Source: Monosiga brevicollis MX1
Lineage: Eukaryota
Direction of reading: 5' to 3'
Length of the DNA: 39,556 nt
NCBI RefSeq assembly: GCF_000002865.3
Contig: NW_001865092.1
Span: forward strand, 15,536 to 55,091
The notes under the pieces were generated by a model. That model was not told the DNA's origin and ran no database searches. It was given only the letters and a program-made list of their open reading frames with translations. The translations under genes and the position numbers were made by a program. Below, in pieces: positions 6,493 through 39,320 of the stretch (positions are counted from its first letter, which is position 1; each line of letters starts with the position of its first letter).

Positions 6493-7860
6493 TCATGCAA
6501 GCACGCAAAATGGGGTTACACTTGACCGTTCCCAGGTCGCCTCCTCCTTCGAGTAACCCATCCACTTGACGAGATACTCGATACGAGGACGGCCCGCACG
6601 GCCCTTGGGCCGTACAGTGCGCTTGTCGAGCAAAGTCTCGACTAGATAGTACTCGCCATACGAGTCACGAAAAATTGGAGCAAGACGGAAGTCCTCCGCT
6701 GCGTTTGCCGGAAGCTGGTAACGGCGTAGATGCTCGAGGTTGATAACTGGATGGGCGCGAACGTCGTTCGGCAGCTCAAGTCGATATGCATTCGAGCTCA
6801 CGCGCTCGAGTACCTTGAATGGCCCAATGCAACGGGCGCCCAATTTCGAGGAGTGTGTGGCACGATCTGTGGGCGACCGCACCGCCTTGATGGAGACCAC
6901 CACCCAGTCGCCGGGCTTGAACTCCACCATGTTGACCTTCCGGTCATAACGTTCAGCCGCCTCTTCCTGGCCGAGGGCCGTCACATCCGCAACGTATTGC
7001 CAAATGTTCTGGAGGCGCCGAAGTTCCGAGTCTGCATCGTCGTCGCCAAAGGCTGCCGCCTTAGGCTGAACTAAAAGGGATGACGGTGTCACTGGATGCC
7101 GCCCAGTCGCCGCAAACAGTGGCGTCAGGCGCGTGACCTTGTGCGTGGTGCTGTTGATGGCATAGGTAGCCATGGGAAGCATCTGGACCCAGTTGTCGCG
7201 GTCGGTCTCCGCGCCGGTGCGGAGGCACTCGATCAGAACTCTGTTGTATCGCTCAGTCAGTCCATCTGTCTGTGGATGGTGAGCCGTCGAGAAGTCGAGG
7301 TTGGTTCCAAATGCTTTGCACATCTTCTGAAAGATGCTGGCAACAAAACGGGTATCACGGTCAGAGACGATGCTCAAAGGCATGCCGCCCATCGGCAACA
7401 TCATCTCCAAAATCAGGCGAGCTGTATCGAGAGCGTTGATAGCTTTCTTCGTAGCTCTGGTCATCACCATGCGTGTCAGGTGGTCCACAACCACCAAGAT
7501 GGCGTCGCAGCCCTCACACTTGGGCAGCCCCGTGATAAAAGTCAAGCCCCAGAGGTCTTTGAGCTGGGAGCGATCGTTAAAGAGGCTGCCAAGCGCATAG
7601 TAGAGGCCCGTAATGTCGTTGCAGGAAGCGTGGGTGAGGTGGAGGCGGCAAATGCTGATGGCAGGCGAAGCGGACTGGGCAGCGAGCTGGTCGAAGAAGC
7701 GTTGAAAATGGGGAGGTTGGCGTTGTGTTGACCCAGCCGTGGTATCGGCGCGAAGGATGGGCAGCATCCACATTGGCGTGAAAGGTGGAAAGCTTGAAGA
7801 GTTGAGGGTGAGGCAGGTGGCATCCGCGTTCAAATTCGTATGCGCAACTTCGCCTGGACA
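6493..7860 (-). mobile_element. pol: Degenerate Ty3/gypsy pol 3' end: integrase plus chromodomain (chromovirus)
   Basis: Integrase motifs FITGLP..AILVVVDHLT, SIVSDRDTRF and STAHHPQTDGLTERYN; GPY/F motif IGPFKVLER..AYRLELP; chromodomain EYLVKWMGYSKEEATWE. A frameshift near 7540 puts the first catalytic Asp (LGLDF) in another frame. No RT or gag is recognisable. Confidence 0.92.
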
Positions 7861-8149
7861 ATGAAACACGTTCATCAGATCAAGCCGAATTCAGGGCGAG
7901 AATAAGTGAACGATCTTTTTGCTTTCGGGAGCAATGGCAGCTTGGTTGGCCTTGTGAAGATCGGTAATGGACATTGTACATACCTGTGTGCTGCCCTCAG
8001 TCCTGTAATGCTTGCCAAGTCCAGTTTCACACGCGGCCCATCTGTGCTACACAAACTACATCATGAGCCACCTACCTCCGTTCCGGCTTAAACCAATTTG
8101 CGCTTCACGGGCTACCTTGATAAACGGCAGCCCGCATTGACCCGTAGAG

Positions 8150-23260: not shown

Positions 23261-23420
23261 GGCGGAAGGGGGGTTTGGCTATATTTTTTTTCAAGGTAGA
23301 AAATTTAAATCTTTAGTAAATTCTGCTTGGGTTGACAGACTTTTTTCAAGGTAGAAAAATTTAAATATTATTGACATGGAATTGGTTTTTATTTAAAGTT
23401 TTATTTTTTAAATCATCGTC

Positions 23421-24689
23421 ATGAAGGGGACGCTGTGGACCGCGGTGCGCTGCTGGGTGCTGATCGGCAGCAGCTTTCTTGTCTGGGCCCTTGCTGTGGA
23501 TGTGATCGAGCCCAGCATCAGTGTCGATGCCGAAGGCACGCTGTTCATCAATGCCAGCAACCGCGTTGTGCTCAACGGCGTTGATGTGCTGGAACGTCTC
23601 AAGTCTCTGACAGTCTTCAGTCCGAGCACGTTCAGGGGTTACACCATCACCAGTGCCGCTGCCGGTGCCAGCTCGGCATACGCGGCAGACCTGGACAAGG
23701 ATGGCCACCTCGATGTCCTGAGCGCCAGCCACGATGACGGCAAGATTGCGTGGTACCACAACAACGGTAACGGTGCCTTTTCCGCGCAGATGGTCATCAC
23801 GGAGGCCGCAATCGGAGCGGCCTGCGTGCACGCAGCAGACCTGGACAACGACGGTCATTCCGACGTTCTAAGCGCCAGCCAAAACGACGATAAGATTGCG
23901 TGGTACCGCAACCATGGCAATGGCACCTTTTCCACCCAGCGCGTCATCACCGCAGAAGCCGACGGGGCCTGGTCGGTGTACGCGGCAGACTTGGACAATG
24001 ACGGTAACCTCGATGTTCTCAGCGCCAGCCGGGACGACAACAAGATCGCATGGTACCAGAATAATGGCAACGGCACCTTTTCCAGCCAAATTGTCATCAG
24101 CACGACCTCGGGTACCGCGTTCTCCGTCTACGCGGCAGACTTGAACAACGACAGCTATCCCGATGTTCTCAGCGCAAACTCCGCCGACGGCGATAAGATT
24201 GCGTGGTACCGCAACAATGGCAACGGAACCTTCTCCGACCAAATTGTCATCACCACCGCTGCCGATGGTGCATGCTCGGTGTACGCGGCAGACTTGGACA
24301 ATGACGGTGACCTCGACGTTCTCAGCGCCAGCCGGCACGACAACAAGATTGCGTGGTACCGCAACCACGGCGACGGCAACTTTTCCACGCCGATCGCCAT
24401 CACCACAGCCGCTGAAAGTGCATTTTCGGTGTATGCAGCGGACTTGGACAGCGATGGCCATGTCGATGTCCTCAGCGCCAGCTATGGCGACAATACGATT
24501 GCGTGGTACCGCAACAACGGTGACGGCTCCTTTTCCACCCGAATTGTCATCACGACCGCCGCCGACTTTGCGTGGTTTGCATATGCGGCGGACCTGGACA
24601 ACGATGGCGACCTCGACGTCCTCAGCGCCAGTCGAAACGACGACAGGATTGCGTGGTACGCCAATCAGTGGAGCGACATGTTTTCTTAG
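23421..24689 (+). CDS. Secreted FG-GAP/VCBS-like repeat protein, predicted 7-bladed beta-propeller (422 aa, intronless)
   Basis: Signal peptide followed by seven ~50-aa repeats of (V)YAADLDxDGxxDVLSASxxDxKIAWYxNxGxGxFS, each with a DxDxDG Ca-binding-type loop. Confidence 0.92.
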   Translation: MKGTLWTAVRCWVLIGSSFLVWALAVDVIEPSISVDAEGTLFINASNRVVLNGVDVLERLKSLTVFSPSTFRGYTITSAAAGASSAYAADLDKDGHLDVLSASHDDGKIAWYHNNGNGAFSAQMVITEAAIGAACVHAADLDNDGHSDVLSASQNDDKIAWYRNHGNGTFSTQRVITAEADGAWSVYAADLDNDGNLDVLSASRDDNKIAWYQNNGNGTFSSQIVISTTSGTAFSVYAADLNNDSYPDVLSANSADGDKIAWYRNNGNGTFSDQIVITTAADGACSVYAADLDNDGDLDVLSASRHDNKIAWYRNHGDGNFSTPIAITTAAESAFSVYAADLDSDGHVDVLSASYGDNTIAWYRNNGDGSFSTRIVITTAADFAWFAYAADLDNDGDLDVLSASRNDDRIAWYANQWSDMFS

Positions 24690-32939: not shown

Positions 32940-33696
32940 GCTCAAAAGGTTTGTGTTGCAAACCCCTGATCACCTCAAGCTCGATGTCCTCGCCCCTGTC
33001 TGTGACGATTCTCAACCAAAGTGATGGGATGAGCGCAACTGGTCTGAGAAAAAACTGGAGCTGGCTGCTGGGCGGTGGAGACGGCGGGCGGATCACACTA
33101 GACACACACATAGGCGAGCACGCCAAAACAATGATACACACAGATACGCCGATTGCAGCAGCGCAGCGGTGCAGCGATTTCTGTCACATCAAGCCCAAAA
33201 TGCATACAAAGGCACCCACAAATTGTCCACAAATCGTCCTTTGTACGACAGAATGTAGAAAAACGTATCGACAATACGTGCTGTTAAATATGCATCAACT
33301 TACTCTACTTCAGCCATTAAAACAACAATAAGGTATGTATCATCTTCATGATCTCATCGTTTGCAAGCTCATGAATGTTGGGGCACCGCATCACGCCAAG
33401 GAGGGACATTGAGGGATGATGATGCGTGATATGGACGGCGGATTGGGGCACGCCGCCAAAGTCACCACCTTCCCCACCCCTCCCGGCTCCCTTCCATTGT
33501 TTCGCCCCTCTTCACTGTCGACCCGTTTGGTAATCGGAGACTGGCCAGATCAGTAAGCGTACCATCGTGTGGGGTCGAAGAACGCGACAATGTCCTCGAT
33601 GGAAAAGCTCACAGAATTGCAGCAATTTTTTACCTTAAAGTTTTGGTTGATATGTCAAAATATGTTTACTTACCATCGGCGATATTTGACCCAGTT

Positions 33697-33769
33697 GGCG
33701 GATTGGCGCAATTGGTAGCGCAGTGGATTCCAGTTCCAAAGGCTGTAGGTTCGAGTCCTGCATCTGTCA
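33697..33769 (+). tRNA. trnW-CCA: tRNA-Trp(CCA), copy 1
   Basis: 73-nt cloverleaf: acceptor stem GGCGGAT/ATCTGTC, D stem GCGC/GCGC, anticodon CCA at 33730-33732, GGTTCGAGTCC T arm, discriminator A and a downstream T run. Confidence 0.93.
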
Positions 33770-33948
33770 AATATCTCTTTTTTTTGCCGTTCTAAGGAAC
33801 AACATGTGTTTTTGACAGGTGTTTACATCTCAATGTCACGTCGTGAATAATGTTATCTGTTTTCTGTTGTTTGCAATTCTACTTCCTTTTAATGTTATTT
33901 ATATACTATATATTTCGCCATTGGCTCTCGGCGATATTTGACCCAGTT

Positions 33949-34021
33949 GGCGGATTGGCGCAATTGGTAGCGCAGTGGATTCCAGTTCCAAAGGCTGTAG
34001 GTTCGAGTCCTGCATCTGTCA
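33949..34021 (+). tRNA. trnW-CCA: tRNA-Trp(CCA), copy 2 (identical, 252 bp downstream)
   Basis: Identical to copy 1, including ~20 bp of 5' flank. Confidence 0.93.
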
Positions 34022-34648
34022 AATATCTTCTTTTTGCTCTTTTTTCTCTTTTGCTGTTCCGCTGATTTTTCTGGTCTTACACGGCAGCGGCCGTTCGGGG
34101 CTCGCCGTTTGGGTACTTTGCAGGGTGACGCTTCAGCGGCGAGGTACGGTTAGCTAGGTCCAGTGGCACTGCCGTCCAGTCTGTCATCAGCTCGATCCAC
34201 TTCTCCCAAACCAAACTAAACCAGCTCCCCTCGCAAACAACCATGGACACGCCTTTCATTTTGGGGTCGACGGGCATGCCTCATGTTTTGACGAGCTCTG
34301 AGATGCCACGACGGCATCATGCCACCCCCGTCCTTGGCCAAGAGCCCAATGATCGTGGTGCTGCGATGGAGTTAACATGATAAAATAAAACTCGTCCAAA
34401 AATATTGACAGCAGAAAAACTACAAAAAAATTACTACAAAATTCACGTTTATTCCGCCCAGTGAAGAGAACCGCCACCCCAGCGGTATTCTGGGGTATTC
34501 AACGTGCATCAGTATCAATTGTTGGTACTGCAAACATTGCAGGCACACGGGCTCACATTCACGCAATACACACATTCACGGGTCGAAAAGCAACTTCATT
34601 CGGCACAAAGCCCCTGGTATGGGCCAAGGCGTCTCCATTCATACCCGG

Positions 34649-37600
34649 TCAACCGCTGCGACAATAAGCAATTGACGCCGTCGACAGCCCCAACAGGCCA
34701 ATAAGGACCTACAAGGACACACAGCGCGGCATGCATGAGTGAGGGCGGTCGTGCAAAAACGACCCAGGCTCTGCGCAACAGTCTCACGTACCATTGGCCC
34801 GTAGAGACCGAGGTAGTAAAGCAACGCCGAGGCCTCGCCAATTGAGCCGACCTGTCGTGGTGCCAGGCAGGGAACGACGTGAGCCCTACGAAAGGTGGAA
34901 CATGCCTCCAAACACAGAGCACACGTCGTGCGTGCACCTGTACTTCCACCCACCTTGTAACCCGAGCGCCACACGCCACCATGGAAGGAGCCATAACGAA
35001 ATTGTTCAAGCTGGTTCGACAACTCAAAGGACGGATTGGCCTTGCTCTGCTCGTTGCGGACGTCGTGGATCAGCAGCGCCCCCATGACCGCGTTGGAGGT
35101 TTCCTGTGGGCCCCCAAACGCACCACACCCCAAGAAAACGTGAGATGCAAGCTTGTGTCCAAGCAGTGCGACCGAGGGTTGGTGCTCTGACCTGCCAAGC
35201 AACCTCAAAGGCCGGGAAGTGCTTCCAACCTCCGTAGGCTGCAGCAAAGCTCTTGTTGTGCACGACCGACAGCGTCGCCGTGGAGGGGGCAATGTTGGAT
35301 GACACACGAGAGCCCCCCGCGCTATCAGAGCCCCCAAAACACAGTCATGAACCCAGTGCAATTGTACAATTCACACGCCTGCTGCGAAGCAAAAGGTTCT
35401 TACCGAGCGACCATGGCACGCCAGTGCTGCAGGCGCTTGGCCAAAGCATAGTTGGGGCCTGTACTCGGAGCAAAACGGGCCAGAAGATGAATACAGAGAA
35501 ACAAAGACGCAGCAGCAGAGCGGGGGTCGAGACACGGAACCACGCTTCGACGGAAAGAGAAAGCACATAAAAATGCCACAAATTCATTCATCATAGCCCA
35601 CACTTGAACCTGACCGGGTACCGGGCCTCAAACTCACCTTGCTGCACAACAATACCGTCGTTGATGGCATAGGTGTGAGTTCCGGAAGCATCCTGAGCCA
35701 GGGGCAAGACGTTCTTGGTGCAAGCCTTCTTCATGACAGTGCGAAGGACAGAGACAAATGTCTTGACCGAGCCAGGGTTCTTGTAGTTGGCCGCGGCCGC
35801 ATCACGAGCATCCGTGCTGACCTGCATCCAGTGCAGCAAAATTTATGACGTGAGAAGAACTATCAATCAAAAGCAAATACACCAGACCATGATGCGCAGC
35901 CTGCGTCATCCACGCACCACAAAGACGTCGGTGGGCGAGCAGAGGTAGGCCAGAGTTGTCACCGTCTTGCGGCGACGGATCACACCGGCCTTGATGGCAT
36001 CCATGGCAAGCGAGACGCGCACATGCTTCTCGCCGTCCAAATAGGCATATCTATTGAAGCGCACAACAAAGTAAATCACTTGCTGCACGTACACAGCAAA
36101 ACACCACCTCGAAACCAAGCAAAAGAAAACGAAGAAGACCAATAAGGAGCGCCATGGGACGAGGGGCAGCCTACCCGCCAACAATAAATTCTTCCTTGGG
36201 CATGAGGTCAGACACCCAGTTGCAAATTTCGGGCGTGTCGGTGAACAGGTTGGCGCCAGCGTTGGCATAGATCAGCTCGTCCGTAGTCAGCTCAGCCACG
36301 GGTTTCTACAGCATGCCCACGCAGCGTGGTTGAGTGTGGCAGCATCGTTTTTGTGGGCGAGCCACGCGTTCAGCCTTGACAGCCAGAGCCGAGTCGTACC
36401 TTGGTTGGGAAGATCAAGGTACCGGCACTCTCGCGAGCCACCTTGATCAGACGCTCCCAGATTTGCGGGCGGTCGAGGTCAAGGGCAATGACGTTGGCCC
36501 CGAGAGCCATGAGGACAAGATAGGGACCCATGGCTAAGGTCAGTATGCAGCCAGCAAGGCGAGGGATCACAAAGCGCGAGGTCAGCGGTGGTGCGTGCGC
36601 CAGACACCTTGTCTGATATGGATATTCAGGACGAACCAGAGCCGGCACCAAGAAGGACAAAGTACTTGTCGCTGAGATCCACCCATTCGTCGTGGTCTGC
36701 CACGGCAGCAATGGCATCACGGGCGCTGAACCACAAAAGGTCAAAATTAAGGAAGGTGTTAGGCAACGCACGATAGAGAAAGGTAGGGGTGTCAAACACA
36801 GCTTCAAGCCAGACCTGGGTTCGATGGTGCCATTCTTGACCCATTGATCAAGTTGCTTCTTCAACGCTTCGCCTACACGAGTGATACGGGATGAGTTGGG
36901 ACGAGAGAAGCAGCAGGCACAACAAAGCACCGACTACAACTGAGCAGGGGATGCCTAGTCATGACGCTTGACAAACCGGTGAGATCTTCAAGGGGAGACT
37001 GCTCCGGGTAAGGTTTGCGACGGTAGGGCACCTTGTACACGGGGTCGCGTTTGCCCGAGCCCTTGATGGTCATGGTGCCCGGGAAGCTGTGGGAAGCCAA
37101 TCAGAATTTGCGTGCGCAAATTTTGGATCAGGGGCAAGCCACGTGGAAAGGGGAACATGAGGCGGACGCGAGCGTATGAGGCCAGAGAGGGAAGTCAGGC
37201 GGATTTGGCAAGACGCACCTGGCCGTGATGGTGCTCATGGCAGTGGCCAAGGACATGACCTTGCCGTCACGAACAAACTCAAACTGGTTGTGCATGTAGT
37301 CGAGACCCGTTTGGGCAACCTTGAGAGCAGTCTCGGGAGTGCGCAGCGAGATGCGCACGTTCTCGATGAAATGCTTGCCGTAGCCAAAGCGCCAGTTGCG
37401 CTCCTTCATGACGGCCACCGCTGCCTGAGGATCCACGTCCATGACGCTGCGTGCAAGCACGGCTTGACCCGTCGAGCTTGTACTATAGAGGGGCAGGGTG
37501 AGTTTGGGGTTGAGGGAACAGCGAACATGCATGGGCATGCAAGTTATGCAGAAAACCATGGTTACCTGCGAGTGCCAGTAGCGTCGGCAGGCCACTGGAT

Positions 37601-39320
37601 GCCCTCGGTGGGCTCGGGGCGAGCAGGGCGGCGCTTGCCAAAGACCTTGCGACGCTGGGCCCACACGTGCATGTAGAGACCCGGAAAAACTGCAGCGAGG
37701 GGCGGGGTGGCGTTGGACGATGAAGCGAGTGTTGAGATATCACGGCGAGGTTTACAAAGGTCAAGGCAAAGGAATCATCAAAAGCAAGAAAGAAAGAACG
37801 GCAGTGCTGACCGATGGGATAGAGAGACAGGAAGGCCATGATGGTGTAGTTGAAGGTGAGAGCGACGCGAGCGAGGAACTGGGCAGTTTCGTCGTCATCC
37901 GGTACGCGCTGCTCCTCGGCCAGAGCATCATAGTAGCCAATGGCTTGAAGAATGCAGGCAATTTCCGACTGGATCGTACGGAGAGCCAACACAGGGGGTT
38001 CAAATTGAGGGAGAAAAACAAAAAGATAGACAGAAAGAGTGGAACGCGAGTGCTGATGGGTTGCTGTGATGATGGGCTGGAGGGACGTACCGCGACGCCG
38101 AGCGGGTAGAGGACGACGAAGAAGGAGTAGCGGCACCAGGTCAGAAAACCAGGGGCATCGCCAAGCAAGAGCTTGGTCCAGTACCAGTTGTAGCGCACCA
38201 CCTAGCACGACGAGCAGCGGTCGGTGAGACTGTGATGTGGAGCGCTTGGTCAATGTGAAGAGAGGGAAAAAAAAAAAAAAAAAGAGCAGGTAGGACACCA
38301 ACCTCAGTGACGGCCCAGGCAAAGGTCATGGTGTAAAAGGCCAGGGAGTTCATGATGCGGGGATTGATCCAGCAGGCGGCCCAGACAAGCATTACGCGCG
38401 AGAGGACCTACAGCAAGCGGAGCCAGGAGGAGGCAAGCCGCGTGAGCTGAGGGCCTCTGGCAACTGGACTTGCGGAGCAAGAGAGGAACTGTGGGAAGGA
38501 GGGGCCGAGCTAGCAAGAGGTCGGACCTGCATAAAAGTGGTGGAGACCTTGGCCTTGACAAAGCCGAGGGCCGCGTGAGCGACCTCGAGGATGGCAGCGG
38601 TTTGGAAGATCTGCGCGAGGGGGTCACGGGAGGCGCCGGGCAGTGAGTTTGGCTCTTTTTGTATGTATGGTGGTGGTCACTTGCTATGACCATGAGCAGT
38701 AGAAGGGGCGGTCAGAGGTGGACAGACCTGGAGAGCATGGAAGAGAGGCATGCCACTGGAGCTATCGGTGCAAAGGAGGCCATGGGCTTGGGCGGGGAGC
38801 CAGGCTGGGGCGAGATCAAGCTCATGATCACCGGCCACCCCATTGCAAAGGTGAAACGGGCGGAGTAGATCGTACAAGATCATGGACCAGCTATCGAAAC
38901 AGGGCCAAAGGACATTGGGTGAGACGGATCGCGGCGGGGACTGGATGTGTTCAAGGGACGCAAGCGCCAGGTCACAAGTTGTTGATTTTTGGTGTGCTGT
39001 GCATTTGCACACGAGTGTCATATCTCCGGGGCGGGGAACGGGGGTAAGCAGGATCAGCAGATTTGACGGGAGAGAGAGGAAGAGGGAGAGGGAGACTGCC
39101 CAGAGACGGGCGCTGCCGTTTTAACGGGGAGATTACTGCGCAGTCAGTGAACTCGAGACCAAAACGCAGTGACATCTTACCCGGCAGCCAGAAGGGCATT
39201 GTAGAGGATCAAGTAGCCATTGACCAGTGCATTTCCACCTTCTGCTTGACCGCTGGTCCCATCCTTCTGGCCCCCAGCCGCCGGACGGGCAGAGGCCATC
39301 GCGCTGCCGTTTCGACTCAT
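34649..39320 (-). CDS. HACD: 3-hydroxyacyl-CoA dehydratase (PTPLA/PHS1 family) fused to an uncharacterised Rossmann-like domain with a C-terminal hydrophobic tail (813 aa, 20 exons)
   Basis: GT-AG exons: 39181-39320, 38728-38890, 38527-38610, 38303-38407, 38091-38201, 37812-37968, 37566-37689, 37219-37482, 36977-37086, 36815-36872, 36637-36725, 36400-36533, 36175-36305, 35918-36050, 35638-35821, 35404-35458, 35192-35321, 34954-35103, 34792-34851 and 34649-34708. They total 2442 nt in one open frame. HACD motifs: YLILYN, QTAAILEVAH, QVLSR, AWAVTEVVRY, RYSFFVVLYPLGVASE and LYMHVWAQRRK. Second-domain motifs: NWRFGY, LLGAGSAMGP, YAYLDG, SPTD, QGPNYALAKRLQHWRA and HGGVWR. Confidence 0.85.

Follow-up and report, generated by a model that had tools for sequence, protein, structure and literature searches.

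In-frame fusion of a HACD dehydratase with a predicted SDR-fold domain in Monosiga brevicollis and its possible role in acyl-CoA elongation

Introduction

HACD is an established ER dehydratase, and the peroxisomal MFE-2 (Fox2/HSD17B4) combines an SDR (3R)-hydroxyacyl-CoA oxidoreductase with a fused (de)hydratase. Ketoreduction is the step directly before HACD in the elongation cycle (PMC4086937), and the catalytic Tyr/Glu residue pair has been described for Phs1 (PMC5008698). Here we analyze a locus of Monosiga brevicollis MX1 in a window of 39,556 nucleotides (the whole stretch of DNA that was analyzed), for which an initial annotation, made from the sequence alone, proposed that a HACD is fused in frame to a Rossmann-like domain of unassigned family, perhaps an NAD(P)-dependent reductase.

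Structure and expression of the fusion gene

All 19 introns of the 20-exon model (Table 1) are GT-AG, and the single stop codon is the terminal one at 34651-34649. No stop codon interrupts the passage from the C-terminus of HACD to the second domain within the exon 37689-37566, which is spliced in phase 2 to position 37482. The joint 37482/37566 is present in five of the eight runs, with 72-124 letters on its shorter side; X3, X4, X5 and X6 belong to one study and X8 is a marine metatranscriptome from a separate study, whereas X1 and X12 are unspliced and DNA-like and X9 has no aligned contig. An X3 contig of 1441 nt extends from exon 1 to beyond exon 8, crossing the 37086/37219 joint, and contigs of X4 (2030 nt) and X6 (2108 nt) carry HACD and second-domain exons together. 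The RNA joint tables cover 17 of the 19 introns; intron 4 is supported by contiguous contig pieces and intron 18 by homology and a loose end. The Choanoeca flexa transcript protein P0002 is 69% identical to the 813-aa model over 771 columns. HACD and the second domain are thus joined in one spliced transcript, and the fusion put forward in the initial annotation, which had named this very junction as the place to look in RNA, is real.

The same annotation drew attention to a TAA directly after the donor of intron 7 and to a HACD-only isoform that could result from it. The TAA (37564-37562) exists, as part of the GTAA donor, but the isoform finds no support: no transcript retaining intron 7 is present among the RNA contigs examined, a type of assembly that drops rare isoforms. 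Because four of the six phase-2 introns of the fusion gene reach a stop after a single codon when read through, the intron-7 stop is an unremarkable by-product of the donor consensus. The start of the second domain, previously set at the exon-8 boundary, lies within exon 7, at EGIQWP near aa 282, where a Gly and a Pro are conserved in the family.

Table 1. Features of the HACD-SDR fusion gene (positions within the window)
Feature	Position	Strand	Basis
Whole coding region, HACD-SDR fusion, 813 aa, 20 exons	34649..39320	-	gene model, RNA contigs, homology
Exons 1-7	39320-39181, 38890-38728, 38610-38527, 38407-38303, 38201-38091, 37968-37812, 37689-37566	-	
Exons 8-14	37482-37219, 37086-36977, 36872-36815, 36725-36637, 36533-36400, 36305-36175, 36050-35918	-	
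Exons 15-20	35821-35638, 35458-35404, 35321-35192, 35103-34954, 34851-34792, 34708-34649	-	
HACD/PTPLA dehydratase domain, exons 1-7, about aa 30-272, multi-pass membrane	37633..39320	-	PF04387
HACD catalytic Tyr196	38106..38108	-	motif, alignment
HACD catalytic Glu203	37963..37965	-	motif, alignment
Intron 7, 83 nt, phase 2	37483..37565	-	spliced in RNA
Unannotated SDR-fold domain (predicted), about aa 282-813	34649..37606	-	predicted structures, family alignment
Gly-rich dinucleotide-binding loop GAGSAMG, aa 465-471, interrupted by intron 11	36526..36649	-	family conservation
Asp487, end of beta-2	36478..36480	-	conservation, PMC2792337 rule
Ser595-Pro-Thr597 after beta-5, candidate SDR catalytic Ser/Thr	35930..35938	-	position in model
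Tyr666-x-x-x-Lys670, SDR active-site motif	35436..35450	-	conservation
3' UTR, likely poly(A) site near 34505	34505..34648	-	X4 and X6 contigs; poly(T) loose end in X6

The HACD domain

PF04387 matches exons 3-5, of which exons 3 and 5 each pass the curated cut-off alone; P0002 matches the same model with E 2e-49 (167.7 bits, cut-off 27), and the sequence of the C. elegans HPO-8 structure matches the HACD domain with E 9e-33. The catalytic Tyr and Glu are intact, as noted earlier, and Tyr196, judged by its motif, probably corresponds to Tyr149 of Phs1. Among 39 HACD-first rows, Glu is present in all and Tyr in 35, four divergent rows having Phe. Choanoflagellate HACDs fall among the stand-alone HACDs of animals, fungi and green algae in a tree whose branching is not resolved.

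The second domain

The second domain matched no entry of Pfam or NCBIfam and no PDB sequence, and none of 51 family members matches the classical SDR models PF00106, PF13561 and PF08659 at E 0.1. Profile matches to SDRs in PDB reach only E 0.09-1.5, and an ESM Atlas search returned clusters of hypothetical proteins, none of them named. The domain is predicted to consist of an N-terminal alpha/beta subdomain, a Rossmann core and a hydrophobic C-terminal helix. In the loop after beta-1, which is one residue shorter than the classical SDR loop TGxxxGxG (PMC2792337), the first Gly is retained in 329 and the last in 316 of 330 domains. Asp487 is predicted to favor NAD(H), by the rule linking Asp after beta-2 to this cofactor (PMC2792337); Asp occupies this position in 307 of all 330 domains and in 102 of the 125 domains of a representative set that was not chosen by motif, and a 15-member clade has mostly Ala-Arg-type residues in its place. 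The first position of the Ser595 site is Ser or Thr in 124 of the 125 representative domains; to judge from the model, the hydroxyl of either Ser595 or Thr597 could act in catalysis. In the YxxxK motif, Tyr is invariant (125/125) and Lys nearly so (123/125).

Both AlphaFold models of the domain display a Rossmann fold with SDR topology, the domain-only model with pLDDT 96 and pTM 0.94, and dozens of SDRs match both at Z 15-17 over 210-240 residues. Ordinary SDRs align with about 210-235 residues, chiefly of the Rossmann core, whereas the alpha chain of yeast FAS aligns with the domain-only model over 306 (Z 17.9, rmsd 3.8; model residues 3-510 against 383-955) and mycobacterial FAS over 265 (Z 16.5). 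A second structure comparison has fungal FAS in all of its top 21 rows (305-315 residues, Z 17.1-19.9, rmsd 3.7-5.4), as does Foldseek in its top 7, such rows being one protein family counted repeatedly. The rmsd of the FAS matches is 4-5 A, and in the wide structure searches they and peroxisomal dienoyl-CoA reductase are no more than 1 Z unit apart. We accordingly regard the domain as a predicted SDR nearest in structure to the ketoreductase (KR) module of type I FAS. The Rossmann-like character suspected earlier agrees with these models, and the idea of an NAD(P)-dependent reductase is likewise supported.

Sequence-level support for kinship with FAS-I KR is weak. Against shallow FAS profiles, hhalign gave E 0.05 and, in a second run, E 0.009 with a probability of 4.5% and a score of 29 versus 21 for the best shuffled profile; the match is limited to the first helix and a beta-alpha-beta unit, and a global profile alignment of the domain to FAS KR yielded no match.

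Distribution and history of the fusion

Clustered at 50% identity, the family comprises 2619 clusters, 804 of them at E 1e-30. Homologs exist in both Actinobacteria and protists, as the initial annotation had anticipated; stand-alone second domains are found in protists and bacteria, the bacterial carriers including Acinetobacter, Chloroflexaceae (Chloroflexota), myxobacteria and actinobacteria. The fusion, which it was suggested to seek in other protists, proved widespread, with full-length forms in transcriptomes of other choanoflagellates, Amoebozoa, Neobodo and stramenopiles. PF04387 is carried by 69 of the best 120 matches, and the collected proteins comprise 101 HACD-first forms, with the Monosiga model, P0001 and cluster mates counted, and another 15 in the HACD-last order. 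Of 50 long or partial matches scanned, 40 contain PTPLA, no other fused partner being recurrent, and one PTPLA-carrying match has a PKD channel domain as well. No viral relatives of the second domain were found in the search, and plasmids yielded matches in six records, all of A. baumannii and either unannotated or annotated as hypothetical.

The HACD-last domains form one clade (support 100/98). Independent origins of the fusion were considered and not adopted: the trees reject neither a single clade of HACD-first domains (p-AU 0.16) nor one of all fused HACDs (p-AU 0.32, in a tree of 45 of 106 rows with stand-alone rows picked by similarity to the choanoflagellate HACD).

The expected lipid-gene neighborhoods of bacterial homologs were not found consistently. 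In 80 bacterial loci, nfuA is present in 44 and a rhomboid gene in 42, with synteny chiefly in Acinetobacter. Acyl-CoA genes lie near 4 of 34 other loci (L009, L033, L065, L070; 109 of 119 selected neighbors scanned) and lipid genes near 4 of 21 actinobacterial loci (L101, L116, L118, L119; 21 of 22 loci and 57 neighbors, the unpublished G006 left out); in these counts, which have no background control, no neighbor recurs across bacterial groups. PTPLA was found in none of five bacterial carriers, the positive control likewise giving no signal. Across 401 actinobacterial genomes, 22 (G006 included) have the family, 12 have FAS-I and one has both, with no signal of the mutual exclusion that we considered.

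A strict PTS1 is absent from all 105 fused proteins (93 HACD-first, 12 HACD-last), and 9 of the 12 HACD-last proteins end in a dilysine ER-type signal. Among close stand-alone homologs, 46 of 51 have a hydrophobic tail. In the stand-alone representatives a strict PTS1 does occur, at the end of 16 of 89 against an expectation of 0.15 (P about 6e-28, a value to be read with the common descent of such signals among relatives in mind), and these paralogs cluster in one tree region.

Proposed function and alternatives

We propose, with a probability of roughly 45%, that the HACD-SDR protein made from a single transcript works as a two-step ER enzyme, ketoreduction being followed by dehydration. With NADH as the probable cofactor, the SDR domain would turn 3-ketoacyl-CoA into (3R)-hydroxyacyl-CoA, from which the HACD domain would make trans-2-enoyl-CoA. 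Splicing, reading frame and conservation of the fusion and of its catalytic motifs are observed; the SDR fold and its similarity to FAS-I KR are predicted, and we infer substrate, direction, cofactor and ER location. A carbonyl-reducing SDR is favored because the domain has YxxxK and Ser/Thr, unlike divergent enoyl reductases, which have YxxMxxxK or have lost the Tyr (PMC2792337). Also in favor of the two-step enzyme are the recurrent pairing of the two domains, the FAS KR-like predicted structure, the place of ketoreduction directly before HACD in the cycle, the lack of a strict PTS1 in fused forms, the dilysine ends of most HACD-last proteins and the hydrophobic tails of close stand-alone homologs. 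Against it stand Asp487, which predicts NAD(H) whereas the known elongase KAR uses NADPH (PMC4086937), the weak profile similarity to FAS-I KR, the PTS1 of some stand-alone representatives, and the bacterial carriers, in which neither PTPLA nor a recurring lipid neighbor was seen.

The NAD-type Asp, together with the PTS1-bearing paralogs, leaves open a beta-oxidation-like direction, in which HACD would hydrate enoyl-CoA and an NAD+-dependent SDR would oxidize (3R)-hydroxyacyl-CoA to 3-ketoacyl-CoA for chain shortening. The arrangement would resemble MFE-2/Fox2 as an SDR fused to a (de)hydratase, but the partner there is a hot-dog hydratase 2 and here the membrane HACD (PF04387). We consider such reverse chemistry unlikely: fused proteins lack PTS1 and HACD-last forms carry dilysine signals, HACD is a dehydratase of the ER, and the PTS1 proteins are distant paralogs.

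Rather improbable, too, is the reduction of another lipid carbonyl by an SDR merely co-located with HACD, which could, for example, serve wax-ester synthesis by turning acyl-CoA into an aldehyde or alcohol, or act on a 3-keto sphingoid base. The bacterial carriers belong to groups of neutral-lipid producers, and the tail anchors of the family are like those of other ER lipid SDRs; however, fusion to HACD in both orders is left unexplained, and wax-ester or sphingoid neighbors are not recurrent in the scanned bacterial loci.

Still more doubtful is a role of the SDR at step 4, following HACD, as an enoyl-CoA or 2,4-dienoyl-CoA reductase in place of Tsc13/TECR. It would fit the proposed HACD and TER subcomplex (PMC4086937) and the standing of DECR2 (4fc6), the top non-FAS match, at rank one or two of each wide structure search (Z 17.3 and 16.9), but that match covers only the core, full-length alignment being obtained solely with FAS KR chains, and the active site of the family, YxxxK with an invariant Tyr plus Ser/Thr, is neither of the YxxMxxxK nor of the Tyr-less type.

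That modelling or assembly joined two adjacent genes, or that the transcript is mostly HACD-only, is highly improbable: the NCBI model itself is a 1835-aa chimera and intron 7 holds an in-frame TAA, but the junction is spliced in five runs and complete fused ORFs occur in many independent transcriptomes.

If the two-step ER enzyme is the correct reading, part of acyl-CoA elongation could be carried out by a bifunctional enzyme in numerous protists, among them diatoms and the nearest relatives of animals. The proposed second activity is hidden because databases label these proteins only HACD or hypothetical; the literature listings searched (subscription journals and supplements being outside the scope) describe neither fusion nor family. 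For the family, which is large yet absent from Pfam, a fold and an active site are now predicted and a reaction can be tested; its stand-alone members, as putative relatives of the FAS-I KR, offer material for studying the origin of the megasynthase. One speculative and, in our view, improbable scenario is that an ancient free-standing acyl-CoA ketoreductase family, sister to FAS-I KR, was fused early to HACD as a KR-DH elongation enzyme, was put to separate use in paralogs with a tail anchor or in peroxisomes, and disappeared from the animal and fungal lineages, leaving HACD1/2 and Phs1 as the orphaned half.

Comparison with known systems

HACD1-4, Phs1 and PAS2 (PF04387) share with the choanoflagellate protein the PTPLA domain, multi-pass membrane helices and the Tyr and Glu pair, but end where it continues with a catalytic-type domain of ~530 aa. 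KAR/HSD17B12/Ifa38/KCR1 resemble the second domain as membrane-bound SDRs with the proposed reaction; in contrast to them, it has no Pfam adh_short match, comprises about 530 aa, is predicted to use NAD(H) and is fused to HACD. SDR enoyl reductases of the FabI/InhA type have YxxMxxxK where this domain has YxxxK. The KR module of FAS-I (2uv8, 4v8l) is the best and longest structural match, over the Rossmann core and the preceding region, with Ser-Pro after beta-5 and YxxxK similarly placed, but identity is 13-14% and Thr/Ser follows beta-2 where the second domain has Asp. Moreover, the FAS-I KR sits in a megasynthase with ACP and KS, whereas here the protein has two domains in 813 aa, and its homologs occur alone or fused to HACD.

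Gene structure and expression

The Monosiga brevicollis HACD-SDR gene reads in frame from the dehydratase into the second domain. Exon 7 (37689-37566) carries the end of the HACD domain and the start of the second domain, and is joined by a phase 2 splice to 37482. This junction, which the initial annotation singled out for an RNA check, was found in five of the eight sequencing runs compared (X3-X6 from one study and X8, a marine metatranscriptome), confirming the proposed fusion; the region is unspliced in X1 and X12, and no X9 contig aligned. HACD exons and second-domain exons are joined on single contigs, none of which covers the whole CDS. The second domain had been placed from exon 8 onward, but it begins within exon 7, and intron 7 therefore does not mark a domain boundary. 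The TAA from which a HACD-only isoform had been envisaged is present, but it is part of the donor and not distinctive, as the same holds for four of the six phase-2 introns of this gene.

Exon 8 is 100% identical to MONBRDRAFT_37825 of M. brevicollis, an 1835-aa model that also holds kinase-like, TLC and phosphodiesterase segments and in which the Gly-rich motif is mis-spliced. The NCBI model (P0001) has only exons 4-19 in common with the window (34792-38407), with a few substitutions; its kinase, TLC and phosphodiesterase flanks are absent from the window. DNA run X1 covers the sequence above 38410 in lower-depth pieces, and RNA-run variants lie at 38363, 38578-38579 and 38766-38778. A second copy, an allele or a different assembly is a possible source of these differences. 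In Choanoeca flexa, a complete transcript-encoded protein of 778 aa has the same fusion; it is 57% identical to the Monosiga product over HACD and 76% over the second domain. An artefactual fusion is thus highly improbable.

Features of the window and stand-alone paralogs with PTS1 ends
Feature	Position	Strand	Description
HACD-SDR gene	39320 (ATG) to 34649 (TGA)	minus	20 exons, 19 GT-AG introns, 813 aa, no internal stops
tRNA-Trp(CCA), tandem	33696-33770	plus	shortly downstream of HACD-SDR gene
tRNA-Trp(CCA), tandem	33948-34022	plus	shortly downstream of HACD-SDR gene
Frame noted by eye from ORF list	6493-7890	minus	presumably retrotransposon integrase/chromodomain-like
Frame noted by eye from ORF list	23412-24689	plus	presumably 425-aa FG-GAP-like repeat
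Frames noted by eye from ORF list	1064-26800		presumably several ankyrin-like exon fragments
Assembly gap	near 1890-2430
PTS1 stand-alone paralogs			P0216, P0256, P0252, P0240, P0255, P0222, P0197, P0210, P0258, P0245, P0169, P0246, P0209, P0199, P0181, P0182; ends SKL, ARL, SRL or AKL

Predicted fold and active site

Family models and solved-structure sequences gave no match to the second domain. AlphaFold2 modelled the C. flexa fusion (pLDDT 93.9, pTM 0.79) and a stand-alone A. baylyi protein (pLDDT 96.2, pTM 0.94) with confidence, predicting an SDR in both cases. The domain-only model best matches yeast FAS alpha (Z 17.9, rmsd 3.8, 306 residues, model 3-510 vs 383-955), with 265 residues aligned for mycobacterial FAS and about 210-235 (Z 15-17) for ordinary SDRs. 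In one structure search the first 21 rows are all fungal FAS chains, as are the first 7 of another, and the full-length fusion model agrees on this match. Because the yeast ketoreductase (KR) proper maps to about 672-972, the match reaches into the scaffolding region before it. By the usual FAS boundaries, a subdomain of the second domain may correspond to DM3 or the four-helix bundle. A bioRxiv paper (10.1101/336578) describes the DM3 of type I FAS as an ancient, conserved element. A type I FAS-like KR region also occurs in long open frames of 10 of the 301 Myxococcota genomes sampled (L121-L130).

Motifs were counted in 125 domains from a search not selected by motif, and the motif-selected bacterial-locus scan was therefore left out. 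Tyr is present in 125/125 and Lys in 123/125 (YxxxK), Ser/Thr after beta-5 in 124/125 and Asp after beta-2 in 102/125. By the active-site and cofactor rules in PMC2792337, the second domain is a predicted YxxxK SDR with NAD(H) preference. The earlier idea of an NAD(P)-dependent reductase agrees with this fold and these residues, function being predicted. In one 15-member clade, the Asp is mostly replaced by a small residue followed by Arg, which suggests NADP(H) use. Four fusions with divergent HACD (P0173, P0218, P0250, P0270) have Phe for the catalytic Tyr; three of them belong to this clade and pair with an SDR without the NAD-type Asp. Their activity is possibly changed.

Distribution and history

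The second-domain search gave 1317 matches among 7993 scored candidates, with PF04387 in 69 of the 120 matches listed, and the HMM search 2619 clusters at 50% identity. Named fused members come from four more choanoflagellate species and Barroeca, several amoebozoans, Neobodo, Triparma and diatoms, so the fusion sought in other protists exists; stand-alone ones come from Creolimax, Rigifila, Stygiella and several amoebozoans. No animal or fungal names appear among the named matches, a minority of all. The proteins collected comprise 101 HACD-first, 15 HACD-last and 160 without HACD, the last including fragments and bacterial proteins. At least 455 bacterial loci (Acinetobacter, Actinomycetota, Myxococcota, Chloroflexota, Burkholderiales) encode relatives, and together with the protist members they bear out the earlier suggestion of a family in Actinobacteria and some protists. 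Salpingoeca rosetta PTSG_07138 (P0276, 363 aa) runs from HACD into the SDR start and stops, and is probably a truncated annotation of the fusion.

A quick FastTree analysis of 167 SDR domains places the choanoflagellate fusions with those of Neobodo and amoebozoans and splits the HACD-last proteins between two positions. When 45 HACD domains were analysed in a careful tree, three separate clades emerged: HACD-last (100/98), HACD-first outside the choanoflagellates (100/100) and choanoflagellate HACD-first (100/99). The choanoflagellate clade is part of a polytomy that also contains stand-alone HACDs of animals, fungi and green algae. The two domain orders imply at least two rearrangement events; tree tests did not reject a single origin of the fusion, and independent fusions are not proven.

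Targeting signals

PTS1 and dilysine patterns follow the usual conventions. Strict PTS1 is absent from 93 HACD-first and 12 HACD-last proteins; 9/12 HACD-last proteins have a C-terminal dilysine motif, and a hydrophobic tail occurs in 39/93 HACD-first and 46/51 close stand-alone proteins. Among 89 more distant stand-alone representatives, 16 have strict PTS1 ends (0.15 expected), in one part of the tree, a probable peroxisomal branch. It would thus appear that ER-type, peroxisomal and bacterial branches exist within the family, a pattern that suggests a role in lipid acyl-CoA metabolism and leaves its direction unfixed.

Proposed function and comparison with known systems

HACD dehydrates 3-hydroxyacyl-CoA made by the ketoreductase of the preceding step (PMC4086937), and its catalytic residues have been described (PMC5008698). 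Given a YxxxK SDR of FAS-ketoreductase shape tied to HACD in both orders, the simplest reading, tentatively held (probability about 0.45), is that the SDR domain, as a ketoreductase, would supply 3-hydroxyacyl-CoA, which the HACD domain would dehydrate. An MFE-2-like reverse direction is distinctly less probable, and reduction of another lipid carbonyl slightly less so again. Enoyl or dienoyl reduction is unlikelier still: peroxisomal dienoyl-CoA reductase lies within one Z unit of the FAS match in wide structure searches, whereas the second domain has YxxxK and differs from YxxMxxxK enoyl reductases (rules as in PMC2792337). Bacterial neighbourhoods, suggested earlier as a source of lipid genes, FAS-I co-occurrence and viral searches were uninformative on function. 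At a single locus (L065:5203-5988), a bacterial homolog is immediately preceded by an enoyl-CoA hydratase gene of the same orientation.

HACD-SDR is a real, expressed and widely conserved architecture, from which we infer bifunctionality, and it brings to light an unannotated SDR family. The literature searched, outside subscription journals, holds no description of the fusion or family, and a prior mention is possible. The second domain resembles the KR of type I FAS in predicted structure, but its weak profile likeness to bacterial FAS-I KR regions and the nearly equal match to peroxisomal dienoyl-CoA reductase in the wide searches count against kinship. The pairing of HACD with an SDR is analogous to KR-DH and MFE-2.
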